This document shows, piece after piece, positions 1,488 to 59,233 of a DNA stretch of 64,000 bases. The position numbers and the translations under genes were made by a program. The notes under the pieces are model-generated. The model was given only the letters and a program-made list of their open reading frames with translations. It did no database searches and had not been told where the DNA came from. Each line of letters begins with the position of its first letter. Positions within the stretch are counted from its first letter, which is position 1. Origin of the DNA: a virus. The DNA is taken from positions 1-64,000 of the IMG/VR virus record IMGVR_UViG_3300036761_001135, one strand, 5' to 3'.

Positions 1488-1535
1488 TTCCCCCTCCACG
1501 CGAACCCAGGTTCGCCTCTCACATACAATCCTTGT

Positions 1536-1565
1536 TTGACAACCTGCCGATTTCACGTCTATAAA
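1536..1565 (+). promoter_or_regulatory. Sigma70-like promoter
   Basis: TTGACA-18-TATAAA, intergenic. Confidence 0.6.
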
Positions 1566-1586
1566 TTAGACGCTGAATGAGGTGAC

Positions 1587-1895
1587 GTGATGACGGTTGA
1601 CGAGATGCTGCGCGACCTGCGCAGCGTGAAGATGCGTCCTAGCGAACGGACACACGTAAACGACTTGCGGGTGCGCTTCCAAGTGCTTGGCGCGGTCACA
1701 CCTTTAGATGAGCGGTGGCTGAGGGACATTTGCCGGCGGTATGGCATCCAACTTCGGATGCTGCATGAGTCGAGGGAGCGCGCTCGTCATACGAATGCTC
1801 TGAGATCGATGGGCATCTCAACTTCTGATGCGGCTGAGCGGGCAGATGTGAGGATGAAGCAGATGGAGTCAGAGGGAAACGATCTGGGATTTTGA
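1587..1895 (+). CDS. Hypothetical protein
   Basis: ORF with GAGG RBS downstream of a TTGACA promoter. Confidence 0.6.
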   Translation: MMTVDEMLRDLRSVKMRPSERTHVNDLRVRFQVLGAVTPLDERWLRDICRRYGIQLRMLHESRERARHTNALRSMGISTSDAAERADVRMKQMESEGNDLGF

Positions 1896-5529: not shown

Positions 5530-5702
5530 CATGGGGATTTAGAAACGAACCCCGTGCGAAATAGGATGGATGAAGCGCCTTGTTTGGTTCCACGCGGGGT
5601 TCAAGTACATTTTAAGTCCGCGTTTGGCCGTGTCACAAAAAGCGTCAAGCTGAGATGAGGAAATTGGCTGTCGATCTTCCGACGCGAACCCAGGTTCGTT
5701 CG

Positions 5703-6785: not shown

Positions 6786-8333
6786 ATGCGGGTAGAGATC
6801 GCGGGGTACGCCTGGCTGGATCGAGCAGCTTTGACAGACCGCCAGGTTTCCAACATTGTCACTCGGCTGACCATTCAGCCGAGAAAGACGTCTGATATTG
6901 ATTCGGTGGAGACACCGGATCCCATCCGTTTGTACCGCCTAGATGAAGATCGACAGTTGATAGGCGTGCCTCGCGGTTTCTACCGGCAGATGAGCAAGGG
7001 GTTGAATGACGAGGTCTTGCGCATTGGGTGGGGAAAGCCCATGCGGAAGTTGGAGACGACGGCGCGGTTTGAGGGTCCGTTTGCCGAGCAGGCCGAGGCC
7101 ATCGACACGCTGGTGACAGCGTTGTATCCGCCTGAGACGTGCCCGGAGAACCCGCCGTGGGGCGGGGCGCTGCTACAGGCACAGCCGGCGTTCGGCAAGA
7201 CGGCATGTGCTTTGGAGGTAGCTCGACGCCTGGGTCGGAGAACGCTTATCCTCGTCCATCAGGAGTTCTTCTTGGACCAGTGGCGCAAGCGGATCGAACA
7301 GTTCTTGCCGGAAGCGCGGATCGGCATTGTTCAGCAGGATCGAATGGAGTATGCGCGCACAAAGGGAGGGGAGGCTCCAGACTTCGTGATCGGGCTCTTG
7401 CAGAGCTTGGCGAGGGACACTGGAAGTCGGTATCCCAAGGAAATGTACGAGGGCACCTTTGGTTTAATTATAAGCGACGAAGTTCACAGAACTGGCGCAG
7501 CTTCGTGGTCTGATATAATTCCAAAGTTCGATGCGGCCTACAGGCTAGGCTTGACGGCCACCCCTCGTCGCAAGGACGGGGCCGAGGACGTGTTCTTCCA
7601 CCACATCGCGCCGGTCACGTACCGGGCGACCACGGAGTCGGTGCGGCCGAAGTATCGTAGGATTGTGACGACGACGGAGGTGCGATCCATTTCGCGTGGT
7701 GAGTACAAGGTGCCCGTTGACCAGTTGAACAGCGCTCAGATCATCAATCAGGTGTGTTTGGACACGTTTCGGACGCAGGCTATTGCAGACGACATCGTGC
7801 AGGCGGTGAAGGTTGGGCGGAAGATCATGGTGGTGAGTGCCCGGCTGGAGCATTTGAGGGTCATGGCCGAGCGCACAGGGCAGGCGTTGTTCAATTTAAA
7901 CCTGCCTTTCGTGCCCATCATGGACTTTTACACGGGGGAGTGGTTTACAGGGGAGGTTTGGGAAACATCGAACAAGTCGCACAAGCGGGGCGATTTGAAG
8001 ATGGCATCTCGGACGCAGGTCGATCTTGAGCGTGCGGAGCGGGCCAACGTGATTTTTGCTACCCCCCAGCTTTGCATGGAGGGACTCGATATTCCAGCAT
8101 TGGATGTCATGTTGATGGCTACACCGATTAGCGATGTGGAGCAGTTGACAGGGCGGGTGCGGCGATGGTGCGTGCCTGGGAAGCAGTGTGCTCACTATTG
8201 CCCTTGGAGGGCGGGCAAATGCAAGGGCAAACCCATCCCGATCATCGTAGATGTGGTGGATGAGAGGATCCCGCGTTTACGTGGTATGGCTGCCAGACGC
8301 GAGAAATTTTACAAAACCTGTTGCACGATGTAA
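6786..8333 (+). CDS. SF2 DExH helicase (UvsW/ResIII-like)
   Basis: PAFGKT, DEVH, GLTATP, EGLDIP and QLTGRVRR motifs. Confidence 0.88.
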   Translation: MRVEIAGYAWLDRAALTDRQVSNIVTRLTIQPRKTSDIDSVETPDPIRLYRLDEDRQLIGVPRGFYRQMSKGLNDEVLRIGWGKPMRKLETTARFEGPFAEQAEAIDTLVTALYPPETCPENPPWGGALLQAQPAFGKTACALEVARRLGRRTLILVHQEFFLDQWRKRIEQFLPEARIGIVQQDRMEYARTKGGEAPDFVIGLLQSLARDTGSRYPKEMYEGTFGLIISDEVHRTGAASWSDIIPKFDAAYRLGLTATPRRKDGAEDVFFHHIAPVTYRATTESVRPKYRRIVTTTEVRSISRGEYKVPVDQLNSAQIINQVCLDTFRTQAIADDIVQAVKVGRKIMVVSARLEHLRVMAERTGQALFNLNLPFVPIMDFYTGEWFTGEVWETSNKSHKRGDLKMASRTQVDLERAERANVIFATPQLCMEGLDIPALDVMLMATPISDVEQLTGRVRRWCVPGKQCAHYCPWRAGKCKGKPIPIIVDVVDERIPRLRGMAARREKFYKTCCTM

Positions 8334-8356
8334 TGTGCGCGCATGAGGTGTTCGTC

Positions 8357-8926
8357 ATGACGCGTATCGAAACAGGATCTACAGGTGAAAGTTCTGGGGA
8401 CAGGGATCGGAGCGAGTACCAGAAACAATATTATCTGGACAGGAAAGAGGCGATTTCCAAGGAGCGGAAGCGTCGATACCGCGAGGATCCCGAGTACCGC
8501 GAGTCGATCTTGGATCGGGTTAGCGACTACCGAAACAAGAAGCAGGAGAATATCAATAAGTTGCGGGCCGAGGGGAAGTTGCCGCCGTCGCATCCGAGGG
8601 GGCCACGTCCGCCGATGAAGGTCAAGGTGAACGGTGTCAGCACCATTGTGTACACGGTGGGTCGCATGGCTGTAGAGTTGAATCGGTCCAAGGACGTGAT
8701 CAACTACTGGACGCGGATTGGGCTCCTACCGCCGACACCATATCGTTCTGCAAGTGGAGACCGGCTTTACACAGAGAGCATGGCCATCGTGGTAAAAATC
8801 GCCGTTGGCAAGCGTGGGCGAGTTTCGGCTAGCGACCGAGAATTTACGCGAGAGATTCGGCAAGGTTGGGAGGGCTTAGGCGTGGTCATTCCGGTTCACG
8901 TTGACAAAACGTTCATACGGCGGTAA
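8357..8926 (+). CDS. MerR-like HTH DNA-binding protein
   Basis: YTVGRMAVELNRSKDVINYWTRIGLLPP..R...GDRLYT. Confidence 0.65.
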   Translation: MTRIETGSTGESSGDRDRSEYQKQYYLDRKEAISKERKRRYREDPEYRESILDRVSDYRNKKQENINKLRAEGKLPPSHPRGPRPPMKVKVNGVSTIVYTVGRMAVELNRSKDVINYWTRIGLLPPTPYRSASGDRLYTESMAIVVKIAVGKRGRVSASDREFTREIRQGWEGLGVVIPVHVDKTFIRR

Positions 8927-10756: not shown

Positions 10757-10806
10757 GCGAACCTGGGTTCGTGTCTGGGCATAGTCCGTTCGTGACGAAT
10801 TGCCAA

Positions 10807-17212: not shown

Positions 17213-19150
17213 AGAAGGTGCGACGAGTGTGGGCAACAAATATGGTTGCGACCAGTGTTGAGACCGAAATGACCATTAACGGGCAGAAGGCATGGAAGCG
17301 GTTGAGCTGTCCATTGTCCCATTTTGATGATGTGGACTACTGCGGAGAGTGGTGCGTCTGGTTCGACGTGGAGAGGATCCGGGGGGCGTTGGGGGCGCCG
17401 GATCGGGAGGTTGTCACTTGCAAGGGGACGCCCATAGGGGAGATTGTCGAGGGCAAGTCATGAGCCAGAGTATCCAGTGGGCGCGGCGGTGCGGTGAGTG
17501 TCACCACTGGCAGGCGACTGTGCATCCGGTGGGTGGCGAGTGTACGGCGGACGTGCCGTTCTGGGTGGATGAGGATGGGAGCATGCAGCGGGAGGCGCGG
17601 TTCGTGGCGAGGGATGAGGTGCGGGCGACGGGGTGTGACAAGTTCACGCCGACGTTCGCGCATAGATGAACCATAAGGAGCAAAAATGAGCGGCACGTTG
17701 AAGTACCATTTGGACAATGCCACGGCGGTATTCGGGGCAGACAGTCCGGCCGTTGCTTTTCTCAAAGAGAAGATCGCCGAGCAGGGAGAGAATGAAGAGG
17801 TCATCGCGGATGAGTCGCAACTCATCGCGGCGTTGTTTTCCATTCACAATCAGTCTCAGTCTGGGCAAGAGTTTACTGTGGAGGAGGAGTCATGAGTCAA
17901 GAAAAACCTGACAATTCCATTACGTTTTGCGTTGGGGAACCAAGCCAAGAGGCAGTGCGGATTTGTGCGGATGGCAAGTTCTTCGTGTATGGGCGGGAGG
18001 TCACGCAGGATCGAGAGGTATACGAGGGCTTCGTGAGATTTCTGAAGGAAAGCGGCCACTATCCAGGAGCAAACCATGTCGATGATTCCGTTGGCTGAAC
18101 TCGTGCAACAAGCGCAATTTGCACACTTCAAGATTCAAGAGCGCTTGCGTTGTTACAATACGCAGGATGAACGGGATCAGATCTTGGCAATTGCTGCGAA
18201 GGCGGCACCTGATTTGCATTTTATCTTGCGAGCACACAATCACCTGGAACCTGACAATATGGATTTAGTTCCCTTGGTAGAGATAGGAGAACGACGATGA
18301 GCAAGTGGAAAGTTGAGGCGAGCGCGGTGGTGGGTTTACGGTTTGATGTCGAGGCAGAAAATGAGGACGAGTCATATAAGAGGGCATGGGATCTTGTAAA
18401 ACAAGTTCGCGGGAACAGTAACGGTGGGATTTCTATTCCTACTGGGGTCATCCTTGCGTGGCCTTGTATTGATGAGTTGGTTTGGGGTGATACCGAAATC
18501 GAAGAGTGTGGATGATGAAGTTCGGGACGAAATTCTGGCTGCGCCGGGGGTCCATGTTTCGCCATGCGGGGGCGGGGAGAGCGCGGTTCGTGGCGGCGCG
18601 GTTGCTATTTTGTCGGGGAGAGCAGGTGTACGCGGAGTTGCTAGAGGACGATCCGGGGACGGACGATCCGGGGACGTGTCACGCGGGGCAGCGGGGGTGG
18701 TGGAGTCGCGTATCCGTATCCCTTTGGGAGGACGAGCGCCCGAAAGCGCATGCCGGGAACTTCATCAGCTATGACTTTTAACAGGCGAACCCAGGTTCGT
18801 GTGGACCCGATAGCGCTAGGTGAGTGGATGCGAAAGATAGAATCTCTGCATGGGGTGGTCAGTGTGGAACGCCGCGAGACGCCGCCGACGTGCGTCTTTG
18901 TGATGGTGCAGGATCCACGACGGGAGCGCTGGGAGCGGGTGGATATGACAGAGGATGGAGGAACACAGGTCACAATAGTGAAGGAGATCGAGTCCTATGT
19001 GCGCCTCTCGGTGTTGCCGTCCGTGTTGCAAGCCCAGGTGCGACTGGCGATGCAGGGCGAATGTCGAGAGCAGGTGATCGCGGGCATGCACGCGGACACG
19101 CAGGCGGAGTTGGAGGAGATGATCTGCAAGGGGCAGACGAAGGAGACGCT

Positions 19151-21486: not shown

Positions 21487-24117
21487 ATGATCAAGCAAGC
21501 GCACGCCTGGCACCTGGACGATCAACCGGGATGTCAGGAGCATGTGGTCAAGGGCCGGGGCCTCATTTTGAATGTGCCCGCGTCGCTTGCGATGCAGATG
21601 CCCGGGGTGGCGATTGGCGACCGCGTGTATTGGAGCCATGGCCTCTACTGGGTGATCGGGATCGAGTCGGGCGGGGGATCTGGCGGGATCGGCTTGGTCC
21701 TGCGGCCCGAACCTGGGCAGGAGGGGAATCCGATCCCCGTCGTCCTCGATGGGCAGGGGGTGCCCGCCCGCGTGGAGGCGCCGCCGCTAGTGCCCAGCGA
21801 GAGGACGACGAGCAACTGGGAGCGGATCGTGGACGCGTTTGCGCAGTGCGAACGTCGGTCACCCACCGTGAGGTCCGAGGACATGATTGCAGCGCAGCCC
21901 CTGGTGCCCAATGCGAACGGGGATGCGTTGCCGCGCGTGCCGATGGAGGTGTCGCAGTTCTATCCGCCGCCGCTCGATGGTTTGACTGGCAAGATGGCGG
22001 AGACGTTGGCGCAGGAGGCGTGGTTGGCCGAGCAGTTGAAGAGGGTGACGGATGGGAGCGGGACAGAAATGCCGAAGTCGAGCAAAGATCCGTTTGCCGT
22101 GTTTGACGGGATCGATCCGGGATCGTGTTGCCGGGTGTACTTACATCAACTTGGGAAAACTGAGCCTTTGGCGCGAGTGGTGGGACGAGACGAGAATGGC
22201 GAGTTGTGGATGTACTTTGTCGGGTCTCGTCGTCCGGTCGAGGTGGGGGATGCCCAGCTTGTTTGTCGGGTCGAGTCATTTGAGGCGGTGCCGCAGCCTC
22301 CGGTTAGAGGCGAACCTGGGTTCGTGCCATTTGTGTTGCCTACGATGACGACTAGATCGGGTGAGATGCCTGGCGTGGGCGGCGATGGACAAGTGCAGTC
22401 TGGCCAGCAGTTCGACGAGGTACAGCCGGGACGTCCCTGGTGGTGGTGGTTCGAGCGGGCTGGCATGACGACGGGACCGGAGCGGGCGGTGTATCAGGTC
22501 GTGCGGGACGGGTCCAAGAACATTTGGGTGAGCCACCCCCACGGGGGCGTCAAGGTGCAGGAGTTCGCGGGCTGGGTGCCCATCGGGCCGGTGGTGGCGG
22601 TGCCGGACGGGACGCAGGCGTGGCAGAAGATCCGAGATCTGGAGACGTTGCTGGCAGGCGAGCGGCTGGCGCGAAAACGGGATTGGGTAGAGCGTGAGGA
22701 CAAGTCACATGCGGTGCCAGCAGACAACAGTGAGTTGAGGGATCTGCATCAAATATTGAGCACTGCTGGGTACAGGGAATCACGTCCGATGTCTGCCCAG
22801 GAGACTGAGGGGCTCAGCGGGGAGGAGATCGCCGTGTTGCCGCCGTATCGGTATTCGTTGGCAGAACGGATGCTGAACGTCTTGGCAGAGTTGGGAGAGT
22901 ATCGACTTCGGTTGTGCGAGGCGCGGAAGCAGGTTGAGATTTATTCTGAGCAGGTCGAGGCGTTGGTGGCTAATCGGGGAAATCTTAGGGCAAACTTGGA
23001 GGAGACACGCCCAGTGATAGAGAATTTAGTGGCGTCTCTGAATTGGGCTATGTCAGAGCGGGAGGCGAATGCGAAGTCTTGTGGGATCGGTTGCGATCCG
23101 GGAGCGTGCCACCACGAAGGGGATGTGGAGCGGTTACAACGAGAGTTGACGGATCTACGGAATGCCATGGCGAAGGATCGCAGCGAGTTCGAGCGCTGGG
23201 ACCAGCGATGGACAGCGGCTCGCTTGGAATTGGACAAGGCTGGGGTGCCGGACTGGCGACCGTACACGCCCGAGGAGCAGGCGGCGACCGTGTCGGCAGA
23301 CGGGGTGACGACGGATGCCGGGGTGATGATCCCGGTGGCGGAGCGGATAGCAACGCTGGTCGCGCAGCGGGATAAAGAGAGGAAGGCGTGCGCGGAGGCG
23401 GAAGTCAAGATCGCGGCGCTACAGGTCGATCTGGACAAGGCGAAGGGAGATCGGGGCTGGAAAGAGGTGGATCGTATCCTCTCGATTCTGGAAAAGGCGG
23501 GCGGGCATGCGACGACGGGTGCCCCTTATTGGCGAGTTCTGTCGGCGTCTGAACAGCTTTGGGAGCTTGTGGCGGATCGGGACGATCTCAAGGCCAAGCT
23601 GGACGAGGCGCGCACCGCGATTGAAGAGGTCGTGGAGAAGGTGACGCGGGCGAAGGAGGCGCGAGAGGAGCAGTCTTACGGGATTGGTTGCGATTCTGGT
23701 GCGGCCATTCGGCCAGGGGATCCGCGTTCTTTGCGCACGCCGGATTGGGATAAGCTGCTAACGGAGCGACCGATCTCGAAAGACAAGGCCCCCTTGGACA
23801 TCCTGGACGCCAAGCACTGGAACGGCCTGCCGTCGATTTGGCAGGGGCAGGAGCGTGTCTTAGACCGGGAGGCGCTGCGCGATCGGGTGGCGGCGAAGGC
23901 GCATGAAGTATGGGCGACGTGGATGCACTTCCAGAACAGCCTGGTGCGGTTGGAACCACGACCGGGGGGGACATGCGATGCCGCGTGCATTGATAAGTGG
24001 GAGAGGCAGGCGGGGACGCCTTACGACCAGTTGCCCGAGTTGGATAAGTTGTCGGATCGGGTCATCGCTTCGGAGTACCTGGAGTTGATTTTGGGCGAGC
24101 AATGGAGGGAGCCATGA
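21487..24117 (+). CDS. Large mosaic coiled-coil protein (876 aa)
   Basis: Long ORF with RBS, coiled-coil stretches and internal repeats. Confidence 0.75.
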   Translation: MIKQAHAWHLDDQPGCQEHVVKGRGLILNVPASLAMQMPGVAIGDRVYWSHGLYWVIGIESGGGSGGIGLVLRPEPGQEGNPIPVVLDGQGVPARVEAPPLVPSERTTSNWERIVDAFAQCERRSPTVRSEDMIAAQPLVPNANGDALPRVPMEVSQFYPPPLDGLTGKMAETLAQEAWLAEQLKRVTDGSGTEMPKSSKDPFAVFDGIDPGSCCRVYLHQLGKTEPLARVVGRDENGELWMYFVGSRRPVEVGDAQLVCRVESFEAVPQPPVRGEPGFVPFVLPTMTTRSGEMPGVGGDGQVQSGQQFDEVQPGRPWWWWFERAGMTTGPERAVYQVVRDGSKNIWVSHPHGGVKVQEFAGWVPIGPVVAVPDGTQAWQKIRDLETLLAGERLARKRDWVEREDKSHAVPADNSELRDLHQILSTAGYRESRPMSAQETEGLSGEEIAVLPPYRYSLAERMLNVLAELGEYRLRLCEARKQVEIYSEQVEALVANRGNLRANLEETRPVIENLVASLNWAMSEREANAKSCGIGCDPGACHHEGDVERLQRELTDLRNAMAKDRSEFERWDQRWTAARLELDKAGVPDWRPYTPEEQAATVSADGVTTDAGVMIPVAERIATLVAQRDKERKACAEAEVKIAALQVDLDKAKGDRGWKEVDRILSILEKAGGHATTGAPYWRVLSASEQLWELVADRDDLKAKLDEARTAIEEVVEKVTRAKEAREEQSYGIGCDSGAAIRPGDPRSLRTPDWDKLLTERPISKDKAPLDILDAKHWNGLPSIWQGQERVLDREALRDRVAAKAHEVWATWMHFQNSLVRLEPRPGGTCDAACIDKWERQAGTPYDQLPELDKLSDRVIASEYLELILGEQWREP

Positions 24118-33505: not shown

Positions 33506-33976
33506 GTGGAAGGGTTAGGATGCCTTGTTGCGACGCGAACCTGGGTTCGCGTGTTGATGGAGGAAGCGATGTTCAGTTGCACTCGGTACGAGACCAAGCA
33601 GATTCAAGAGGGGCTGGCGATGAGCGTGACGCGGGTATACCCCAACGGGTGCCCACACGAGGTCGGAAGCCAGATTGTGTTCACGTCGAAGTATCTGACT
33701 GCCAATGACGGGGAGGTGCCGTTCGCGGTGGGTGTGCTCGTGTCGATCCGCCCTATCACCATCGACCAGATGATCCATACGGACCAGTATGCTCAGATGG
33801 ACGGATTTCCCAACGCCCATGCCTGGGAGCAGCACTTCCGCAACGTGCTCTATCCTGGAATCGGGATGGAATCTAAGCTGTATCGACTTCAATTCAGACT
33901 TGAGGAAATGGAGCGGGACATCTCCCGCCTCGCGCCGCGTTCGGAGCCGGAGAACGAGACCGTTGAGGTAGGTTGA
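33506..33976 (+). CDS. ASCH-like domain protein
   Basis: AQMDGF......HF...YP pattern; start uncertain. Confidence 0.5.
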   Translation: MEGLGCLVATRTWVRVLMEEAMFSCTRYETKQIQEGLAMSVTRVYPNGCPHEVGSQIVFTSKYLTANDGEVPFAVGVLVSIRPITIDQMIHTDQYAQMDGFPNAHAWEQHFRNVLYPGIGMESKLYRLQFRLEEMERDISRLAPRSEPENETVEVG

Positions 33977-35529: not shown

Positions 35530-36283
35530 CGAGGATTCCTGGGCGTTGGCGGACACGCTGATCCAGGTGTTCAACGGCTCCTACTACAAGCTGTGGGGGT
35601 TCACGAATTGGACGGAATACGTGACCAATGAGCTGGATTTCACGATCCGCAAGGCGCAGTACCTGATTCGCACACAGGAGTGGCTGACCAAGCTCCCGAA
35701 GAACGTGCAGGTGTGGATTCGCCAGCTTGGGTGGCGCAAGGCGCGCATGTTGGTTGGCATCGTGACGGCCGAGAACGCGGCGGAGTGGAAGGCGCGGATC
35801 GGGACGGAATGTTCGACGATGCAGCTAGACGAGATGTTGCATCAAAATGCCGTGGAAGCTGCCAATGATCCAGACGGGAAGGGTGCGGATGCTGGTAGCG
35901 AGCGTCAGCCGAATTACAACCTGGGTCGCCCGAATCCGCAACAGAGGCAGAACATGGATCGAGCGGAAGAGCGTGCGGCTGTGATTGCGGAGTGCGAGCA
36001 GACCAAGGATCGCAAGGCATATTTGTGGGATCTGATTGCGACGGATTTCCTGGCGACAAACAGTGGAATTCGCACGGTGCAGGAGTACCTGTCGAAGATC
36101 GAGACGACGTTGGGCTTGAAGCTGATTGCCATTGATGATCGGAAAGGTCTCACGGTCATTCATGGCGCGGCGACGTTGGATCTGTTTGCAGACTCGGAAG
36201 ATGAAGAAGAGGAAGAAGGGGAAGATGTTGTCGATCCTGGTATAGCCGCTGTCGATACGGATCTTTCCGCGAGTGCTTCGTGA
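35405..36283 (+). CDS. Hypothetical DNA-binding protein
   Basis: YYKLWGFTNWTEYVTNELDFTIRKAQYLI phage-type domain; acidic tail. Confidence 0.65.
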   Translation: MTVAAKENQGLIVLGREQPEEEGVCEHAEIRKQVLNLRDRSDEDSWALADTLIQVFNGSYYKLWGFTNWTEYVTNELDFTIRKAQYLIRTQEWLTKLPKNVQVWIRQLGWRKARMLVGIVTAENAAEWKARIGTECSTMQLDEMLHQNAVEAANDPDGKGADAGSERQPNYNLGRPNPQQRQNMDRAEERAAVIAECEQTKDRKAYLWDLIATDFLATNSGIRTVQEYLSKIETTLGLKLIAIDDRKGLTVIHGAATLDLFADSEDEEEEEGEDVVDPGIAAVDTDLSASAS

Positions 36284-40988: not shown

Positions 40989-41405
40989 ATGACGTTCACG
41001 ATCCCTCCAAAGGCGAACCCAGGTTCGCGTGTGATCTACGTCTGCCATCCCTACAGCGACGATCCGGTGGGCAATGTTGAGAGCATCAAGCGGTGGTGCC
41101 AGTGGATTACGATGCAAGGGGCAGTGCCGTTGGCGCCGCAGTTGTTCATTCCGCAGTACGTCAGCGAGCAGCATCAGCGGGACGTGGCCATGGCGCATTG
41201 TCTGGCTCTCATTGGGCATTGCGACGAGATGTATGTTTTCTATCCGAAGAACGACTGGTACGACTTCCGGTGCTCGCCGGGACAACAGGCGGAGATCGAA
41301 CGGGCGCGAGCCCTGTGGGGCGATCAGCCGCGCATCTTCCACATCTGGGGGACGCCACAGGGCGAGAAGGAGATCGGCGGGGATGACCGAGCAGAACAAA
41401 AGTAG
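40989..41405 (+). CDS. Nucleoside 2-deoxyribosyltransferase-like (DUF4406-like) protein
   Basis: IYVCHPYSDD...N, PLAPQL, CDEMYV, SPG...EIERA. Confidence 0.7.
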   Translation: MTFTIPPKANPGSRVIYVCHPYSDDPVGNVESIKRWCQWITMQGAVPLAPQLFIPQYVSEQHQRDVAMAHCLALIGHCDEMYVFYPKNDWYDFRCSPGQQAEIERARALWGDQPRIFHIWGTPQGEKEIGGDDRAEQK

Positions 41406-45524: not shown

Positions 45525-47879
45525 ATGGACAACGAAAAGATCGAAATCGCGGAACGGTTGCGCTTTGCGGCGGCGGCCTTGGCGAGCGTCTGCGACGGCG
45601 CGCGCAAACAGGATCAGGTCGGCTTTAGCGCGTCGGATACCTCCTATGGGCGGGCCATCGCGGCCACCCCGGCGGATCAATGGACCGAGGCGGATCTGGT
45701 CGCGGTGAGCGACATGCTGGGCCACTACCGGGGCCAGTTGGCGGCCTACGGGGTGGACTGCGATTCCCTGCCGCGCGTGATCAGGACCGTGCCGGTCGAC
45801 CGGCACGCCAACTACGAATCCTTCAAGACGCGAGCGGCGGCGGCGGAGCGAACTCGGGTTCGCGCGGCCTACGCGGCGGGGACGGCGAGTCGCATGCGGG
45901 TGCGCGAGGTGGCGGACTACCTGGCCTGGGTGGACCGGCGCACGGTCTGTTTCGTGAGTCCGAAGAACGATACGTTGATCGCGGCGATCAAGGCACTGCC
46001 TGGTCGGCGGCGTTGGAACGGCGAGGCCCGGCAATGGGAGGCGGAGCTGTCGGCGGAGAACGCGAAGTCGCTACCGGCGATTTTCGCGCGGTTCGATTTC
46101 GTCGTGAGCGATGCGGACTTGGCGACGATCCATGCATCGGCGCAGGCGAATCCGGCGGCGCATGCGGCTCCAGTGGCAGTCGGACCGGACCACGTTTCCA
46201 TCGAGGGGGATCGGATCGTGTTGCGCGTTCCCTACAACCCCGAGGCGACGACGGCGCTCAAGGACGCGCTGCCAGGGCGACGCTGGGATGCAGCGAACAA
46301 GGTCTGGACGGCGCCTGCCACGGCTGAGGCAGCCAAGGCGGTAGAGGCGTTGGCGGCGCGGTTTGGGTGGCGTCTAGGGGCCAGCGCGAAGCCTCTGTGG
46401 GCGATGCGGGTGGAAGCGGATCGCTTCCGGGCGGCGAGCAAGGCGTCGGACGCGGAGATCGACCTTCGAGGTCTGCGGTCAGACGCGGTTCCTTATCCGT
46501 ATCAGAAGGCGGGGGTGGTCTACACGACGTCCAAGCGTCGGGTGCTGATCGCGGACGAAATGGGAATCGGAAAATCATTACAGGCCCTTATGACGGCATC
46601 GCAGTTGGACGCCTGGCCTTGTCTGGTCGTGGCTCCGAAGGCGGTCTTGAGGCAATGGGCGCGGGAGGTCGGGAAGTTCCTGGAAGGGCGCACAGCGAGC
46701 ATTGTAGGGCTCAAGGGGACGGCGAAGCGGCTGGCCAAACACGGGATGGTCGCGGGCATGGGCGGGGACGTTGTGGTCATCAACTACGACATCCTGGGCA
46801 GGCATCTCGATGCGCTGCGGGCGCACGGATTCCGGTCGCTGGTCGTGGACGAAGGCCACTACATCAAGAGCCGCAAGACTGCGCGTTTTAAGGCGGTTAA
46901 GGAGCTGTCGGGGATGCCGGATCTGGCCTGCACGCTGCTGTTGACAGGCACGCCCGTATTGAACCGGCCCATCGAGTTGGTCGCCCAACTGGACGTGTTG
47001 GGTCAGCTTGATTCGTTTGGCGGGTTCATGCCGTTTTCCAAGCGCTATGCGAACGCTCACGAGACGAAATACGGCTGGGACATGACCGGATCGTCCAACC
47101 TGGACGAGCTGAACCGGCTGCTGCGGGAGCGCTGCATGATCCGGCGGGAGAAGGCGGACGTGCTGGCCGAGCTTCCCGCCCTGCGGCGGACCGTGGTCCC
47201 GGTCGAGGTCGATGATCCGCGTGCTTACGAGAGAGCCATGAACGACATTGTGGCTTGGATGGCGGCGAACCGGGGATCGCTCCCGTCCGAGGCGGCCTAT
47301 CGCGCTGAGATGCTGGTTCGGGTCGAGGGATTGCGACAGCTCGCGGCGCAGGGAAAGTACGCGAACGGGGTGGCCTGGGTACAGGAATGGCTTGAGGCGG
47401 CGGAGGGGCAGAAGCTGGTCCTATTCGCGCATCATCGGAACATCCAAGAGCGGCTGCTGGCGGACCTGTCTGAGTACGGCGCGGTGTCGATCAGCGGCGG
47501 GGACGCGGACGCAGCGCGGGACGCGGCGGTACAGCGGTTCTGGGCGGACCCGACCTGTCGCGTGATCGTGTGCAGCCTCAAGGCGGCGAGCGTCGGGCTG
47601 AATTTGCAGGCGGCGAGCAACGTGGCTTTTTTCGAGTTCGGCTGGCACGCGGGAGACATGGACCAGGCGGAAGCGCGCTGCCATCGCATCGGGGTGCAGG
47701 GGGCTGTCACGGCTTATTGGCTAGTCGGGGAGGACACGTTCGACGAGGACATGGTCGCGTTGATCGAGGACAAGAGGGCGGTAGCTCATGCGGCGGTGAG
47801 TGGAGGAGAGGTTGCTCCGCAGACAGACGTTGTGTCCTGGTTCGAGCGTTTGGCGGCGCGCAAGGGTGCCATGGATTGA
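45525..47879 (+). CDS. SNF2-family annealing helicase (HARP/SMARCAL1-like)
   Basis: Two HARP-like RRW....W domains, ADEMGIGKS, DEGH, TGTPVLNRP, QAEARCHRIG. Confidence 0.88.
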   Translation: MDNEKIEIAERLRFAAAALASVCDGARKQDQVGFSASDTSYGRAIAATPADQWTEADLVAVSDMLGHYRGQLAAYGVDCDSLPRVIRTVPVDRHANYESFKTRAAAAERTRVRAAYAAGTASRMRVREVADYLAWVDRRTVCFVSPKNDTLIAAIKALPGRRRWNGEARQWEAELSAENAKSLPAIFARFDFVVSDADLATIHASAQANPAAHAAPVAVGPDHVSIEGDRIVLRVPYNPEATTALKDALPGRRWDAANKVWTAPATAEAAKAVEALAARFGWRLGASAKPLWAMRVEADRFRAASKASDAEIDLRGLRSDAVPYPYQKAGVVYTTSKRRVLIADEMGIGKSLQALMTASQLDAWPCLVVAPKAVLRQWAREVGKFLEGRTASIVGLKGTAKRLAKHGMVAGMGGDVVVINYDILGRHLDALRAHGFRSLVVDEGHYIKSRKTARFKAVKELSGMPDLACTLLLTGTPVLNRPIELVAQLDVLGQLDSFGGFMPFSKRYANAHETKYGWDMTGSSNLDELNRLLRERCMIRREKADVLAELPALRRTVVPVEVDDPRAYERAMNDIVAWMAANRGSLPSEAAYRAEMLVRVEGLRQLAAQGKYANGVAWVQEWLEAAEGQKLVLFAHHRNIQERLLADLSEYGAVSISGGDADAARDAAVQRFWADPTCRVIVCSLKAASVGLNLQAASNVAFFEFGWHAGDMDQAEARCHRIGVQGAVTAYWLVGEDTFDEDMVALIEDKRAVAHAAVSGGEVAPQTDVVSWFERLAARKGAMD

Positions 47880-47959: not shown

Positions 47960-48027
47960 TGCGGACATCGGATCGCAGCAACGATTGCTGCTTCACGAGC
48001 GAACCTGGGTTCGCGTAGAGGTGTCAC

Positions 48028-50562: not shown

Positions 50563-50680
50563 CAATGCACGCTCTAAGCTGTAGCGGTCCCAACCATAGA
50601 CCGCATTGATGTACAAGGCTGAAAAAGATGACCCGTGTCACGATGAATATGATATATCATATTACTGTATCGAGGGGACC

Positions 50681-51427
50681 ATGAGCAAAGCGGTCCCATA
50701 CTCAAAACTCAAGAAGATGCGCTGCCATAGAGAAGTCTATGAAAGACTGTGCGCTGGTTATCCCTTCCCAGAGGTGGCTAGGTTTATTCAAGAGGACGAA
50801 GGCGAGTACCTAGACGTAGGTCGCCGATCCCTCATTGAAATATTGCGCGACTATTCCGAACGCGAAATCGTCGGTGTAGATCTGATCGCACCACGCTTGC
50901 CGCATTTGATCGTGAAGGCACAAAAGGAATTCAGTGACCGATTGGAGGATCTCCGTCGCCTGGAGCGAGCCTACGAGGCGTTGTTGTACAGATTCGATAT
51001 GTCCCATGGTGCGGAGCGGCGCAACGGCAGGGTGAACGCGGACGTAGACCGGCAGGCCAAGGTCTTGATGGACTATGTGTCCAAGATGCACGACATCAAG
51101 ATGGATTTGGGGCTCACGGGGTCGCGTGATCTTGGCACGTTGACGGTGAGTGCAGAGCGTCTGGCAGAGATTCGGGACAAGTACGGCGAGGGTGCGGCGC
51201 GTGCCTTTGGAGATCCGGTCTCACGAGCCAAAGTTCTTGGTCTGTTGAAGCGTGTGATGCGCATTTCGGAAGACTCTGGCATCGACGATGCGGACGTTGA
51301 AGAGGCGAACCTGGGTTCGCGTGACGATCCCGAACTTTATGAGGACGCCATAGAGGCCGAATATTGTGAGGCGACTACCCCAAAATCGACTAGCGAGAGT
51401 GCCGAACAAGATTCGGAAGACAGATGA
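50681..51427 (+). CDS. Putative terminase small subunit
   Basis: Overlaps the large subunit start (ATGA), helical, GAGGGG RBS; assigned by position. Confidence 0.5.
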   Translation: MSKAVPYSKLKKMRCHREVYERLCAGYPFPEVARFIQEDEGEYLDVGRRSLIEILRDYSEREIVGVDLIAPRLPHLIVKAQKEFSDRLEDLRRLERAYEALLYRFDMSHGAERRNGRVNADVDRQAKVLMDYVSKMHDIKMDLGLTGSRDLGTLTVSAERLAEIRDKYGEGAARAFGDPVSRAKVLGLLKRVMRISEDSGIDDADVEEANLGSRDDPELYEDAIEAEYCEATTPKSTSESAEQDSEDR

Positions 51428-54400
51428 TCGTAACAGGCAACAATGGTCGTCGCAGAAGCATTAGGACGACCAGCGAGGACGTGTTGTCGTTCGAGGATGG
51501 GTACGCCCTATGCACACCAGAGGAGCGCGCCTTAGTCCATGCTTTGTTGAGCGATGACCACCCAAACGATGCGGCGAAGCTCAGTTTGGAGTTGAACGAT
51601 TCGCTCTATCAGCGGCCATTGGTGCCGATCCAGCAGTTCATCGAAGATCCTTATTACCTTGGGGACTCCATGATGACTCTGTATCCGGCGTTAAAGCAGG
51701 ATATTATTGACCTTTTTGCGGCTCCATACAGGGAAGTCGTGCTCACGGGCTCCATCGGCGCGGGCAAGAATTTTTTGGCATCTGCGGCGATTTGCCGAAT
51801 TTTGTACGAGCTGTCCTGCCTGAAGAACCCACAGATGACGTTTGGGATGTCTCCTGGTACAGAGATGGTGATCATGCTGATCTCGAAGAACCTCGTCTTA
51901 GCCCGCGAGGTGATGAAGACCAGCATCGACGACAAGGTGAAGCTCAGCCCGTACTTTATGCAGCACTTCACCCCCAAGTTCTCGACCGACTACACGCTGT
52001 TTCCCAACAACATCCGCATGACCATCGGAAGCTATGGGGCAGAGCGTGCCTTGGGAGCGAATATTTTTAGCTGCATGCTGGACGAATGTCTCAGTGGTTC
52101 AGCATGGTTGCAAATAAAAATAAATATTGATTTTTGCGCTGGTTTGTGCGATACAATCGGCATGTCCGTTGGTGATTTGTGGGCAATGGGGCCTTCGGAT
52201 CGTGACGGGTTGCTGGTTGAAGCGCTGGACCATGTGACGGGTCGGCAGACGTGGACGCCGTTTCGGATGCGGCTATCCACGGTGCAACCGTTGGTACGGA
52301 TTGAAGCCGAGGCGAACCCAGGTTCGTGTCGAGCCATCGAGCCTTCCCTTGAACATCCTGTATTGGTGCGGCGCGGCGACTGGCTAGTTTATGTCCCGGC
52401 GATTGAGATCAGCGTCGGGGATGAAGTGGCTTGGAGGCGCGACGATGGCGAAAAAGGGCGAGACACTGAGCGAGGAGATGAAGGCACGTCTATCGGAGGC
52501 GGCGAGCCAGCGGACTGGCGAACTCAATCCATTCTGGGGGAAGACGCACAGCGAGGAGATTCGAGCTTTGTTTGCGGAGAACGCGCGGAAGCAGTGGACG
52601 GGGACGCACCAAAGCGAGGAGACAAAGGCGAAGAGATCGGCATCTTTGAAGGGGCGCGTCATGTCTGCGGAGACGCGGGCAAAGATGGCAGCTTCGGCAA
52701 AGGCACGTTGTACGCCGGAGTGGCGTGCGAAGAAGTCGGCAGAGATGCAGGAACGTGTTGCAGCAGGGCTGGGACCGACGCCACCAATTCAACCTGCCGG
52801 GCCAGATCATCCGTTGAGTGGGAAGCCGAAGACGGAACAGCATCGACAGGCGTTGAGCGCGGCGAGGCTAGGGTTGCCGGGCCATGCGCACACCGAGGAG
52901 TCGCGGGACAAGATTTCGGCGGGGAACGTGCAGGCGATCAAAGATCGGGTGCGGTCATACCGCTACCATGTGTCATCGCCGGATGGCGGGGTGGTTCCAT
53001 GCCGGACGGAGAACGAAGGTCGTTTGGCGCTCCACCTATGTGCGGAGAAGAATGTAACAGCGGTCGTTGGCGAAGATCATATGACGTGGGTGCCATACAG
53101 CATAAACGGACAAAATCGGTTGACAGTGGGAGACTTTCTTGTGACGAGGGACGACGGGGTGCAGGTTTTGGTGGAAGGAAAAGACCCAACGTCCATGTAC
53201 AACCAGCGTACAATGGCGCGCATAGAGGCGCTGTGGAAGTGGAGTCAGGAGAACAGGGTTCTGTTTATTCTTGCGATCAATGGGAAGCCATTCCCAAGCG
53301 TATGGACAGGCCCATTTGTGGACAAATTTCTCATGGACCATCTGTTTTATCAACGACAACGTGTAATCAGGAGGAGGGTCAACTCTGTTGTAATTTCTCC
53401 TTGCGGAACGATTGTGCCGTGCAAAACGGAGATGGAACGGGCGCTGGCGAGATGTTTGTGTATGGAACCTGGAGTTGCCAGTGTGGTTGGAACGGATCGG
53501 ACAGGGTCGATTCCGTACACCACGAGCGGACGAGTGCATCATGTGGAGCCAGGTTTCATGGTGACGCGGTCGGACGGGGTCATTGTCGTTGTGGAGGTGG
53601 AGACGGCATCTGGTCTGTATCGAGAGAAAGACAGGGCGCGGTTGGAGGCATTGTGGGCGTGGTGCCAGGAGCACAAGACGCCGTTTGTGTTGGCTATCAA
53701 CGAAAAGGGGTTCCCGAGCGTATGGACGGGGCCGTTTGTGACGGAAGAGTTCATGGAGAGCGTGCGGCAACGTCGCGTGCGCTTTCGCACCATGCAGACG
53801 GTCGATACCTTGGAGGTTGCCGTGCCGAGTGTTTGCGAGTTGACGACCTGCCTACAGAGTACCGACTCGTTCGCGTGATCTCGACGCGCCTGTTGCCGGC
53901 CGAGCAGACCTACAGCATCGAGACGGACTGCAAGACGTTTGTGGCTGACGGATGCGTGGTCCACAACACCAACTTCCCGCCCAAGAGAAGTGCTCAGCAG
54001 ATTAACCAGACGTTTGGCAAGAAGCTGACGGCGGCCAACTTTGACATCGTGGAGAAGGTGTACCGATCCATGCTGCGGCGCATCAAGTCGCGCTTCCAGA
54101 TCGCTGGCGGCGACTTTCCGGGCATGGTCATCATGGTGTCTTCGGCGGCGACCTTGGACAGCTTCACAGAGCGCAAGTTGAGGGACGCGCGTCGAGACCC
54201 AACTGTGTTCGTTCGAGATCACACGGCGTGGACATCGAAGCCCAGGGATCATTTTTGTGGTAAATGGTTCTACGTGCTGTGTTCAAAATCCAGCCTTCGG
54301 TCTCGTATTCTCGAAGAGGGCGAGTACAACGAGATCACGCAGGAGTTTTTGCAGGAAAACAATGCGTGGATGATCGAAGTGCCGATTGAGTATAGGGAGG

Positions 54401-56649: not shown

Positions 56650-58369
56650 AATGGGCTGGACGGACACTGTCAAAAAGTTCTTCAGCCGTGACACGACTGG
56701 GAAGGTGTCCGAGCTGGCGAGGGGATCGTCTGGCGAGAACATCATGCCGCAGATGGGGCCAGGCGCTCCAAACTCTGGCATGGGCGGGGCGTACCAGCAG
56801 CTTTCCACCATGCTCTCTGTCGATGCCGATCTCATGCTTCGGTATTCCGACTATGAAAACATGGACGATTACCCGGAAATCAGCGCGGCGTTGGACATCT
56901 ATGCCGACGACGCGACGATCACGGATGCCGTGCATGGGCGGGTGATTTGGGCCACATCGAAAGACAAGATCGTCCGGGACATCATTAACGACCTGCTCCA
57001 TCGGCGCATTCGAATCGAAGAGGACATTTGGGTTGCGATTCGGACGATGGGAAAATACGGAAACATTTTCTGTGAAGTGATCGTGAACGAGAAGGGGGTG
57101 TTGGGCCTAAATTGGCTGCCACCTCCTACCATGCGTCGCATTATCGACGGTCGCGGAAACTTGGTTGGGTTTGTCCAGGATCCTTCGGGGATGTTTGCGT
57201 TCAACATTGCGACGCGTGATGACCTAGAAAAATTGCGTGTGAAACGCGATGGATCTAGCGCGGTCTTTTTCTATCCTTGGGAGGTTGTGCATTGGAGGCT
57301 TCGAGGGAAGCAGATGCGCGCCCTGTATGGCCACTCACTATTGGACTCGGCGAGGTGGATTTGGAAGCGCTTGATCATGCTGGAGGACTCCAGTCTGGTC
57401 TGCAAGCTCACCAAGTCGCCGTCGAGGTTTGCCTTCTACGTTGACACCGGGGAGATGCCGCCGCGAGAGGCGCGGGCCATGGTCGATGAGGTACGGCGTC
57501 GCTATAAGAAGAAGCGGATCGTCGATCCGTCCACAGGAAAACTAGACTTTAGAATAAATCCCATAGCACAGGACGAAGACATCTTTATCCCGACGCGGGC
57601 TGGAAAAGAGGCTTCTCGCGTTGAGGTGCTTTCCGGGCCTGACTACGACGACACCAATGTGCTTGGGTATTTTTTGAAGAAGTTGTACGCGGCGATCCGT
57701 ATTCCACCGCAGTATCTCGGCGGGACAGAGACGACAAATCGTGCTGCTCTTACTCAGGAAGACGTGCAATTCGCGCGCTTGGAATTGCGCATACAGCACG
57801 AGTTTGTGAGCGGTTTATCGCAGGTGGTGCGCGTGCATCTAGCGGCGCTCAACATCGACCCTGATTCTGTGCAGTGGGATCTGCGTATGCCGGCACCGAG
57901 CAGCATTTTCGAGATGCAGCAGATCGAGGTGTGGAACGCGCGAGCTGCATTGGCTGCGGCATTGCGAGACTTCTTCACGATGCCGTGGATTGTTGCGAAC
58001 ATCTTCCACATGTCCGAGGAAGACGCGCTGTTTGCGACCGAGGCCAAGAAGAATGAGGACGAGGCGACTGCAATGGCTCAGGCGCAGGTACAGGCTGAAA
58101 TCATGCAGAAGTTCCCAGAGCTAGGCCCGATGGGTGCCATGGGTGCCATGGGAGTGCCGCCCGAGGGAGAGCAGGGGCAGGCTGGGGCGTATGAGGACGT
58201 GCGGAAGGAGATCCGGCGTGTGTTGGCCGAGAACAGCGGAAGCAACAACGAGGTTTTGCGGCTTTTGAATCGTATTGAGCCTGCTTTGAATCGGGTTGAG
58301 CGGAAAGTGCTCAGCTCAAATCGAGCGGAGAATGCGCGGGGCCAAAACCGGGTCATGATTGCGAGGTGA
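56642..58369 (+). CDS. Portal protein (T4 gp20-like)
   Basis: PEISAALDIYADD, LIMLEDS, FYVDTGEMP, EDIFIPTR...VEVLSG, YFLKKLYAAIRIP. Confidence 0.9.
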   Translation: MTEMGWTDTVKKFFSRDTTGKVSELARGSSGENIMPQMGPGAPNSGMGGAYQQLSTMLSVDADLMLRYSDYENMDDYPEISAALDIYADDATITDAVHGRVIWATSKDKIVRDIINDLLHRRIRIEEDIWVAIRTMGKYGNIFCEVIVNEKGVLGLNWLPPPTMRRIIDGRGNLVGFVQDPSGMFAFNIATRDDLEKLRVKRDGSSAVFFYPWEVVHWRLRGKQMRALYGHSLLDSARWIWKRLIMLEDSSLVCKLTKSPSRFAFYVDTGEMPPREARAMVDEVRRRYKKKRIVDPSTGKLDFRINPIAQDEDIFIPTRAGKEASRVEVLSGPDYDDTNVLGYFLKKLYAAIRIPPQYLGGTETTNRAALTQEDVQFARLELRIQHEFVSGLSQVVRVHLAALNIDPDSVQWDLRMPAPSSIFEMQQIEVWNARAALAAALRDFFTMPWIVANIFHMSEEDALFATEAKKNEDEATAMAQAQVQAEIMQKFPELGPMGAMGAMGVPPEGEQGQAGAYEDVRKEIRRVLAENSGSNNEVLRLLNRIEPALNRVERKVLSSNRAENARGQNRVMIAR

Positions 58370-58372
58370 TTC

Positions 58373-59233
58373 ATGTATGCGAGGTCACAAGATTTACAGA
58401 AATGGTTGGTAGGAAGCTCCGAAGAGCTTCTCGACCGCGTGACTGAGGCGGTGGCGCATGCGGTTGGTTTTGATGTGGAGTTGATTGCCACGAAGAGCGA
58501 TTGCGCTCTGTTTAGAGATCAGTCTGGAAGGCTTTCCGAGGCGGTGTTCACTATGCGTGATGGTGTAGTGGAGGACGTTGAGATCCGGCGCGATCCTGTT
58601 CCTGTGTACGAGGAGGCGCAACTTCCCCGGCTGGTCTCGGACGAGTTGCGGGATATCACAGCGGGTCTGTTGCATGGGAAGCCGGTGACGCGAACCCAGG
58701 TTCGTGCCTTGGCTGGGATCTTACATGCCGACGAGGACTACTGGCTAGGCGACGTGCTTGCGCGCATGGACCAGGCCATATTGGCGGAGGATGCCGATCA
58801 CTGGCATACTGCCTACCAGGCGAACCATGAGAAGATCCGCACGGCGATGTGGGGGTCTATCCGGGAGCTGGAGGCGCGTATTCCGAAGACGGCGTATGCC
58901 AAATTGCCTGCTGGTCGGCTATCGGAGTTTTCTGGAGAGCTAGATGAGTCGCTTGGGATCGTTTCAAACCGCCTAATGGAGATTGTTGACGGAATCTCTA
59001 GCTTGGTGTTTGATAATGATAATGGGTTCTATGGTGCCATCCGCGAGTCGTTGATTGCTGAAGCGCAGCTCATCCATGGGCTGCTCGCCAAGGCCGTAAA
59101 GTTGATGCGCGCGGAAGATCTTGAGCGTATGGCGGTGGCCCATGATCGACTGTGCGGGCGAGCGAAAACCATGGAAGTAGTGGCTGCCTACTTGATGGGG
59201 CGGTCCAAGAAAGGCGCGGAGGAGACGAAATGA
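58373..59233 (+). CDS. Hypothetical head-module protein
   Basis: Between portal and protease genes, with RBS. Confidence 0.7.
   Translation: MYARSQDLQKWLVGSSEELLDRVTEAVAHAVGFDVELIATKSDCALFRDQSGRLSEAVFTMRDGVVEDVEIRRDPVPVYEEAQLPRLVSDELRDITAGLLHGKPVTRTQVRALAGILHADEDYWLGDVLARMDQAILAEDADHWHTAYQANHEKIRTAMWGSIRELEARIPKTAYAKLPAGRLSEFSGELDESLGIVSNRLMEIVDGISSLVFDNDNGFYGAIRESLIAEAQLIHGLLAKAVKLMRAEDLERMAVAHDRLCGRAKTMEVVAAYLMGRSKKGAEETK

Follow-up and report, generated by a model that had tools for sequence, protein, structure and literature searches.

The window considered here, that is, the whole stretch of DNA that was analysed, comprises the first 64 kb of a 168,688-bp virus contig in IMG/VR (IMGVR_UViG_3300036761_001135). 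The element under study is a short palindrome, CGAACC-NN-GGTTCG, which is dispersed over the window within and between genes. The whole genome, labelled G000, has a GC content of 58.8% and a CheckV completeness of 91%. Since the contig of one relative bridges both of its ends, it is essentially complete and circularly permuted.

To judge from its genes, the virus is an uncultured, deep-branching T4-like myovirus. Its T4-like gene set includes a gp20-type portal, a gp21-type prohead protease, a UvsX-like recombinase, DnaB with a DnaC-like loader, and SNF2 and other helicases. With our own codon-model gene caller, 244 of the 250 genes are found on one strand, 91% of the genome is coding and 8.7% is non-coding; the GC skew is +0.2 throughout. 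No tRNA genes were found by a scan of the whole genome. Megablast with 20 kb of G000 gave no match among cultured phages, and the nearest cultured portals are only ~30% identical to the G000 portal, so that cultured phages provide no clue to the host. The GroES-like gene was checked in a protein atlas and yielded no host inference.

Three groups of relatives were compared. The near relatives are five IMG/VR contigs with 74-93% nucleotide identity to G000. The distant relatives have portals 45-70% identical to that of G000 and GC contents of 35-67%. The outgroup, G013, has a low GC content and a portal that is 36% identical. Sixty-seven G000 genes are common to the distant complete relatives and are called core genes below.

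The palindrome and its centre

An exact search finds the 14-bp core at each of the 11 places in the window given in a preliminary description of this DNA (Table 1). By chance ~0.01 copies would be expected, and a count of 11 is not reached in any of 100 shuffled sequences. When up to two mismatches are allowed, only four further matches appear in the window, which is the chance level. The whole genome has 30 perfect copies, together with four variants with one mismatch and five with two. The flanks widen the dyad to ~20 bp (A-S-G-core-Y-S-T), in agreement with the extended consensus AS-...-ST proposed before. The flank pair at +/-1 is G:C or G:T in 27 of the 30 sites. Besides the palindrome, the only word enriched in the intergenic regions of G000 is TTGACAAAC. 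Relatives do not conserve the one-mismatch look-alike in the SNF2 helicase gene (Table 1), which probably arose by chance.

Table 1. Palindromes, promoters and candidate reader genes (positions are those of the window unless marked as genome positions)
Feature	Position	Strand	Context
Palindrome, centre CA	1501..1514	.	Intergenic, 14 nt past a stop codon, ~22 nt upstream of the TTGACA-N17-TATAAA promoter of the replication operon
Palindrome, centre CA	5685..5698	.	Intergenic; a TTGACA -35 box follows after 4 nt, and then the gene at 5816
Palindrome, centre TG	10758..10771	.	Intergenic, 2 nt past the stop of the UvsX/RecA-like gene 9509-10756
Palindrome, centre CA	18786..18799	.	Gene junction, 5 nt past a stop codon; probably or possibly within the first codons of the next gene
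Palindrome, centre TG	22311..22324	.	Inside the 876-aa gene 21487-24117, read GEPGF; kept in G002
Palindrome, centre TG	33536..33549	.	Just ahead of the operon that begins at 33551 and includes the candidate reader gene; present in every lineage examined
Palindrome, centre CA	41014..41027	.	Codons 9-13 of gene 40989-41405, whose ATGA start overlaps the upstream stop
Palindrome, centre TG	48000..48013	.	5' leader of gene 48028, downstream of the TTGACAAAC promoter at 47931 and upstream of the ribosome-binding site (RBS)
Palindrome, centre TG	51306..51319	.	In the 3' part of gene 50609-51427 (by its position a putative small terminase gene); the large-terminase open reading frame (ORF) follows after ~105 nt
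Palindrome, centre CA	52313..52326	.	Inside the 1741-aa ORF 51424-56649, read ANPGS
Palindrome, centre CA	58691..58704	.	Gene 58373-59233, codons 107-111 (RTQVR); the same codon holds the lineage's own word in G011, G008, G010, G018 and G021
One-mismatch look-alike, CGAACTCGGGTTCG	45849..45862	.	Inside the SNF2 helicase gene
Sigma-70-type promoters	8901, 45452, 47931, 50533		Consensus TTGACAAAC-N13-14-GT-TAAATT
Sigma-70-type promoters	genome 148475-161989		Same consensus
Sigma-70-type promoters	genome 91011, 92169	-	Same consensus
Best candidate reader	35405..36283	+	292-aa core protein; KorB/ParB/Noc-type helix-turn-helix (HTH) domain at ~29-150, C-terminal domain, acidic tail, no CTPase N-domain
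Alternative candidate reader	8333..8926	+	197-aa core protein; MerR/RacA-type winged HTH, residues 107-149
Alternative candidate reader	genome 92264-92458		64-aa core ribbon-helix-helix (RHH) protein, RHH_1/Arc-type, conserved N-terminal strand MRLNVE

The two central bases vary. Across the 30 copies the centre is CA in 12, TG in 14 and CG in four; TA is never found. It had been proposed that the spacer forms a CCWGG site. This is so for the CA and TG centres; the copies with a CG centre read CCCGGG instead, and relatives use other centres. The CCWGG is incidental, and the comparison across lineages speaks against its being a methylation site. G000 also avoids 6-bp palindromes to an extreme degree. 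AGGCCT, CACGTG, CAGCTG, CCGCGG, CTCGAG, CTGCAG, GAGCTC, GGGCCC, GTGCAC, CCTAGG and AGTACT are all absent, each of these eleven being expected in 9-65 copies, and CGATCG occurs once against 107 expected. Such avoidance points to unmodified DNA under heavy restriction pressure. A TA centre would make CCTAGG, while CA and TG centres create no 6-bp palindrome. The free centre is therefore presumably the one that escapes restriction, with CCWGG as a by-product.

A full-text search with three versions of the 14-mer found no paper in the library covered. The 18-mer was scanned over ~185,000 representative prokaryote genomes and gave 108 single scattered matches; no genome has many copies, and no lead to a host was obtained.

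Conservation of the sites

The palindrome is found at equal density in the five near relatives, at orthologous places. Orthologous sites stay intact within flanks that are only 70-78% identical, and their centre swaps freely among CA, TG and CG. Single sites are lost by point mutation. The sites at 125960 and 161261 (genome positions) are decayed in G000 and perfect in G005, and the orthologue of the site at 80247 shows the reverse, implying that each site is individually dispensable.

Within genes, the third-codon positions under the cores are conserved in 40 of 40 cases, compared with 362 of 551 (66%) in the flanking codons. The cores are read in all three phases, as had been noticed before from the different peptides that they encode, and in one case the encoded residue changes from Q to R while the motif is kept. 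The earlier count of about seven copies in coding sequence was slightly high. Those at 22311, 51306, 52313 and 58691 lie well inside genes, and those at 41014 and probably 18786 fall in the first 5-13 codons; the copy at 10758, which had been read as RTWVR, is intergenic. The inference that selection acts on the DNA word itself is borne out by the third-codon positions and by the synonymous positions that switch with the lineage (see below).

Two of the in-gene sites call for further remarks. The 1741-aa ORF that carries the site at 52313 follows the putative small terminase gene and matches the large terminases of relatives only in separated segments. The site at 58691 and one at genome position 108250 lie in two different genes that share an identical 26-nt stretch and the peptide VTRTQVRAL.

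Lineage-specific words

Relatives with a portal no more than 70% identical to that of G000 have no copy of the G000 word. Instead, each has its own dispersed palindrome of the same geometry, so that the mapping over the genome and its relatives, which the preliminary description had called for, gives 30 copies in G000, the same places in near relatives and other versions in distant ones. G006, G007, G009, G010, G011 and G019 use gCGAAC-T[YR]A-GTTCGc, a word of the T-type (CGAAC-TNNA-GTTCG). The same CGAAC arms enclose a T[CC/GG]A centre in G008, G017 and G022 and a TCGA centre in G018. In G012, G014, G016, L269 and L270 the word is CGAAC-ACGT-GTTCG (A-type). G015 and G021 have CGCAC arms; CGCAC-GCGC-GTGCG is a version of this kind. 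In the lineages of G021, G015 and L270 the CGCAC arms occur alone or mixed with CGAAC, and hybrid CGCAC...GTTCG sites exist. G018, which has a GC content of 35%, nevertheless contains the GC-rich word CGAACTCGAGTTCG five times in 30 kb; its word is thus held against base composition. No repeated palindrome was found in the low-GC outgroup G013. In G020, an apparent GGCCC-N4-GGGCC palindrome (L263:13500-19800) was discarded, as it falls in long collagen-like Gly-X-Y coding repeats.

Although the words differ, the places are often the same. Lineages with protein identities of no more than 35-60% share junctions that are occupied by a site: upstream of the genes at 1587 (the junction of the site at 1501, occupied in all lineages examined) and 33551, at the junction of the small and large terminase genes, and ahead of three large structural genes. 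The clearest case is gene 58373-59233. Its peptide RT[Q/R]VR is kept, and the codons change by lineage: CGA ACC CAG GTT CG in the G000 clade, CGA ACT CAA GTT CG in T-type genomes, CGA ACT CGA GTT CG in G018, and CGC ACG CGC GTG CG in G021. Here the synonymous positions follow the word that each lineage uses genome-wide. This re-coding of one and the same codon to each lineage's word is a strong evolutionary proof of selection on the DNA word.

Positions 6 and 9 of the core, which flank the free centre, behave like the arms. They are invariant within a genome and switch together between lineages, and they are always complementary (C/G, T/A, A/T or G/C).

Location relative to genes and promoters

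Twenty of the 30 sites lie between called genes, two are in very weak ORFs of the AT-rich early region, three touch first or last codons, and five are well inside genes. About 22 are found within the non-coding part of the genome. The usual order is a stop codon, 2-20 nt, the palindrome, 2-4 nt, GGAGG and a start codon, with 10-17 nt between the end of the site and the start codon. This arrangement recurs in every lineage. The sole site in the small cluster of minus-strand genes is 3 nt past a stop codon relative to the minus strand.

Promoters account for few of the sites. G000 has ~14 sigma-70-type promoters, which belong to a family with the extended consensus given in Table 1 and are concentrated in the early region spanning the contig ends. 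Most of them have no site, and most sites have no promoter. Four or five of the 30 sites sit 4-25 nt upstream of a TTGACA(AAC) -35 box, and two, at 48000 and genome position 153358, are downstream of such a promoter, in the leader. The three sites in the window that had been described as flanking promoters (1501, 5685 and 48000) do so. A search of G000 for a late-promoter motif found no TATAAATA-type element. Because no promoter-like or late-promoter motif goes with them, the sites are not promoters themselves.

The gene at 5816-6760, which follows the site at 5685, encodes a 314-aa core protein. By eye, its C-terminus (...EDDQIPF) has the acidic tip typical of bacterial single-strand-binding proteins, and its N-terminal part has a Gly-rich stretch. 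The product is probably the single-strand-binding protein of the phage.

The LexA (Cheo) box, CGAAC-N4-GTTCG, is the SOS box of Gram-positive bacteria, Actinobacteria and Chloroflexi. The sites might thus be ~30 consensus SOS operators that are repressed by host LexA or titrate it, as was suggested for this DNA before. In most lineages, from 35% to 67% GC, the arms and the spacer length are those of the box; all 30 sites of G000 fit it, as do the T-type and A-type words, and a LexA-type DNA-binding domain is lacking in the phage itself. In a host LexA regulon, however, there is no need for positions 6 and 9 to be fixed in each genome and to switch from one lineage to another. CGCAC arms are used by some lineages, only the four or five sites mentioned above are next to a sigma-70-type promoter, and none of the prokaryote genomes scanned repeats the 18-mer. 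We therefore regard this explanation as very unlikely.

Spacing of the sites

On the circular genome, the gaps between sites have a mean of 5.6 kb, a coefficient of variation (CV) of 0.55 and a maximum of 11.3 kb, compared with a CV of 0.96 and a maximum of 22.5 kb for random placement (p ~1e-4). The evenness also holds against a random choice among intergenic gaps. It is found in G000, G005, G011 and G008 (CV 0.49-0.59, p 1e-4 to 7e-3). In G010 and G012 it is weaker and the spacing is not significantly even.

Even spacing brings up a function in DNA transactions and not in gene regulation. The sites could serve recombination-dependent replication, concatemer organisation or packaging as points of loading or recognition, be it by the candidate reader described below or by another phage protein, with spacing itself under selection. 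In four genomes the spacing is far more even than chance, and copies are found inside long genes where no gap is available. The candidate reader gene described below lies in a recombination module, and the junction of the terminase genes has a conserved site. The loss of single sites (two in G000 and one in G005) also fits a redundant, distributed function. On the other hand, two genomes lack significant evenness, the precise placement relative to stop codons, RBSs and promoters would not be needed, and rearrangement breakpoints are not enriched at sites beyond what the intergenic location gives. Such a role is unlikely in our view.

In T4-type phages, PeSL-type cassettes are mobile regulatory repeats that mark recombination or shuffling junctions between relatives. 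A cassette of this kind was considered for the palindrome and rejected: only 5 of 98 alignment endpoints against G005 are near a site, which is the share expected for intergenic gaps.

DNA or RNA

In every lineage, most sites occupy transcribed gaps, following a stop codon and preceding a Shine-Dalgarno sequence by 2-4 nt, and one is in a 5' leader. It is conceivable, then, that the element acts as RNA: a hairpin between cistrons that terminates transcription, marks a place of processing or stabilisation, or works next to the RBS as a translational operator. It could be read, for example, by the small KH-domain protein (KhpA/KhpB-like) encoded at 1912-2244 in the replication operon. That gene is among the best-conserved core genes, with 61-75% identity to distant relatives. 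The flank pair at +/-1 is G:T in 12 sites and A:C in two, which would suit G:U pairing and in this respect counts against a protein bound to duplex DNA; strand-biased mutation could be another source of the excess, given the GC skew noted above.

The structure of the element argues against a hairpin. The stem would have 6 bp and the loop 4 nt; most dG values lie between -7 and -10 kcal/mol, and the element is not followed by a U tract. The arms are invariant instead of co-varying, and the flank positions at +/-2 pair in only 7 of the 30 sites, with no covariation. Hybrid CGCAC...GTTCG sites would break the stem. The orientation of the centre is random (12 CA against 14 TG), and conserved copies within essential genes (the terminase region and gene 58373-59233) would do harm as terminators or cleavage sites. 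Positions 6 and 9, moreover, would be the first and last bases of the loop, where they are unable to pair, yet they are complementary in every lineage. This is what a two-fold symmetric protein on duplex DNA requires, and double-stranded DNA is favoured over RNA for this reason. The sites are thus symmetric where a hairpin cannot pair, and a role as RNA is quite unlikely.

With a 6-bp stem of this stability and no T run, the element lacks the features of an intrinsic (Rho-independent) terminator. Canonical terminators are few in G000. The one strong example is found at genome position 154470-154520 (L247:10470-10520), where an 11-bp GC-rich stem with dG -23.7 kcal/mol is followed by TTTTTATTT. 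Such canonical terminators, used elsewhere in the genome (e.g., at 154512), imply that the host polymerase uses ordinary terminators.

A proposed protein that punctuates transcription

The sites are real, they are kept in position under selection as DNA, and they co-evolve across lineages. A dimeric DNA-binding protein with two-fold symmetry, already put forward in the preliminary description, is the best reading of them. We infer that a protein binds them and that binding has an effect on transcription. Taken together, the comparisons of sequence make it probable that the palindromes are docking sites on double-stranded DNA for a sequence-specific, two-fold symmetric protein of the phage that punctuates transcription, the product of gene 35405-36283 being its most likely identity.

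The word recognised would be (G)CG[A/C]AC-N-nn-N-GT[T/G]CG(C), in which the outer arms and positions 6 and 9 are read and the central two bases are left free. A dimer of the 35405-36283 protein would dock on it by its KorB/ParB/Noc-type domain, without a CTP-binding clamp, and would regulate its own operon by the site that precedes it. On a genome transcribed almost wholly in one direction, the bound protein would act every ~5.6 kb as a roadblock, an insulator or an operator, much like KorB at its OB sites on plasmid RK2 and the stoperators of Cluster A mycobacteriophages. Punctuation of transcription is the most likely effect because the sites follow stop codons, precede RBSs, flank promoters on either side and only occasionally lie in long genes.

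A candidate reader

The AlphaFold model of the 35405-36283 protein has a pLDDT >88 over residues 30-150, and the N-terminus before residue ~29 is disordered. By eye, the sequence has a ParB pattern, ...RKAQ.L......W...LP.NVQ.WIR.LGW.KARML. In a Foldseek search, every top meaningful match is a DNA-binding domain of the ParB family (Noc, both alone and with its site, Spo0J-parS, ParB and KorB), with probability 0.8-0.92 and E 0.3-2. VIA-align places the KorB domain on operator DNA (1r71) first, with Z 7.8 and an rmsd of 3.2 A over 108 of 114 residues, followed by ParB-parS (Z 7.6) and Spo0J (Z 7.4). Like the sites of ParB, KorB and Noc, which have 13-16 bp, the palindrome is near-invariant, specified almost to the dyad, and present in several dispersed copies.

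The context and the variation of the gene fit as well. A site precedes its operon in every lineage examined, which looks like autoregulation. The gene is beside that of a Cas4/RecB-like exonuclease and, in some relatives, next to a recombinase gene. Among 17 homologues from genomes whose motif type is known, each type goes with a single signature in the putative recognition helix and in the GWxKARML segment: LIRTQEW with GWRK (C-type), LIKTEEW with WTK (A-type), LVQLQEW with GWTK (T-type), and YISAAKW with GPSK (CGCAC lineage). We name this protein as the reader of the palindromes tentatively, at somewhat less than an even chance.

Several observations weigh against it or against the wider reading. 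The fold match is middling (Z <8, Foldseek E 0.3-2), and helical Rubisco-assembly proteins score alike. Pfam HTH_ParB, ParB_N and other HMM families all fail to detect the protein. Six-frame family searches of G000 found none of ParB_N (PF02195), HTH_ParB, LexA_DNA_bind and WhiB, and no canonical ParB is detectable. Searches of the PDB by single sequence and by profile found nothing relevant, and 9 of 100 distant homologues weakly match DUF3102, a family without known function. The helix signatures track phylogeny as well as motif type, and for this reason their co-variation with the motif is not independent evidence. The family is large, with 4290 clusters at 50% identity. Outgroup G013 has a homologue but no multi-copy palindrome; having the protein does not, therefore, imply having the array of sites. 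As to the sites, the spacing of 2-4 nt to the RBS has no obvious meaning for a DNA-bound protein, and the even spacing with in-gene copies fits a genome-wide DNA transaction at least as well as it fits gene regulation.

Two other phage proteins were weighed as readers, the MerR/RacA-like protein 8333-8926 and the 64-aa RHH protein 92264-92458. Both are encoded by core genes. The former has a Pfam MerR-type match (E 4e-4) and a confident model (pLDDT 79.5) whose fold matches include MerR regulators and the RacA-DNA complex; RacA, too, binds dispersed 14-bp GC-rich palindromes. The latter is clearly of RHH_1/Arc type, with its strand MRLNVE conserved. However, the HTH and wing of the MerR-like protein are identical in C-type G002 and A-type G012, so this protein cannot explain the change at positions 6 and 9. 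In the RHH protein, the DNA-facing residues of the strand differ among three T-type lineages that share one word. Homologues of both, as of the 35405-36283 protein, are found in G013, which lacks the palindromes. It is unlikely that either of these proteins reads the sites. Among the HTH genes named at the outset, that at 35405 thus stands as the best candidate for its KorB/ParB-type fold, and the MerR-like protein 8333-8926 is disfavoured.

Near the operon of the candidate reader, the 161-kb relative L270, with an A-type word, has IS605 OrfB/TnpB (Cas12f-like) genes at L270:5522-6727 and L270:16711-17442, and a Sigma70_r4 protein gene at L270:19118-19978.

Implications

A bolder version of the scheme may be considered, with considerable doubt: a KorB/ParB-fold protein without a clamp, together with 20-30 evenly spaced sites, might form a genome-wide punctuation system across the virulent T4-like family, in which the word and the helix that reads it drift together. 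If this were true, lytic phages would have a kind of global gene control that has not been described in them, dividing a 170-kb genome into expression units by programmable roadblocks or insulators, with a natural series of matched specificities. It could also explain the temporal partition of a genome that is transcribed in one direction. If the pairing of reader and site holds, the lineages would provide ready-made matched variants of protein and site for the study of how DNA-binding specificity evolves.

Comparison with known systems

Dispersed near-invariant palindromes have been noted in a few clusters of actinobacteriophages for a decade, and neither a function nor a reader has been found for them. 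The present sites extend the phenomenon to a large uncultured T4-like family of 35-67% GC. Among published cases, the 17-bp repeat of Cluster O mycobacteriophages comes closest; in Corndog it is TGTTCGG-N3-CCGAACA in 34 copies (Cresawn et al. 2015, PMC4351075). Its authors predict a dimeric DNA-binding protein, and its function is unknown (PMC4351075). As in G000, the arms are invariant and the centre is variable; more than 30 copies are spread throughout a non-temperate genome, many of them intergenic and about a third in genes. They are mostly not at promoters and not at rearrangement points, and the arms share the pentamer CGAAC/GTTCG. In contrast to the present sites, the half-sites of the Cluster O repeat are in the opposite order with a 3-bp spacer, and the phages are Mycobacterium siphoviruses with 70-kb genomes. 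Lineage-specific versions, even spacing or a candidate reader are not reported for them.

Microbacterium Cluster EG phages have 18-bp inverted repeats, GATCAACC-NN-GGTTGATC, of unknown function (PMC7302621). These resemble the palindrome in their ...ACC-NN-GGT... centre, in their location in short intergenic gaps and in their conservation despite divergence of the flanks. They are 14-22 bp upstream of start codons, a distance comparable with the 10-17 nt found here. They differ in their arms and in being confined to 8-10 copies at one end of the genome, and no in-gene copy has been reported.

The stoperators of Cluster A mycobacteriophages, bound by gp71 of L5, are 20 to thirty-odd near-invariant sites that are thought to block elongating RNA polymerase (PMC4351075). 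They, too, are placed in the short gaps between genes of operons that run in one direction. Each stoperator is an asymmetric site whose orientation follows transcription and to which a lysogeny repressor binds as a monomer, whereas the present sites have two-fold symmetry and nothing in the phage indicates lysogeny. Although a stoperator-like roadblock had been offered as one possibility, the symmetry of the sites and the T4-like nature of the phage make a stoperator of the lysogeny type unlikely. The LexA (Cheo) box, identical in arms and spacer length in most lineages, differs in the ways given above: a spacer fixed per lineage, CGCAC arms in some, a location mostly away from promoters, and 30 copies in a lytic phage.

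The OB sites of the IncP plasmid RK2 are a near-invariant palindrome that recurs about every 5 kb; some copies are at promoters, some at a distance from them and some within genes. They are the counterpart of the present sites as a dispersed near-invariant palindrome. KorB, which binds them, is a ParB-family HTH dimer that regulates globally as well as its own operon, and the model of the candidate reader matches the KorB domain best. KorB is a CTP-dependent sliding clamp with a ParB N-domain and has the partners ParA and KorA (PMC11790492; structure 1r71). In the candidate, the CTPase N-domain is undetected, and the short N-terminal stretch before the DNA-binding domain leaves no space for one; moreover, the genome is that of a T4-like lytic phage and not a plasmid, and the sequence of the site is different. 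Compared with all these systems, what is new here is the even spacing, the argument from symmetry at positions 6 and 9, the connection of the free centre with palindrome avoidance, the turnover of sites, and a candidate reader that was tested against two alternatives.

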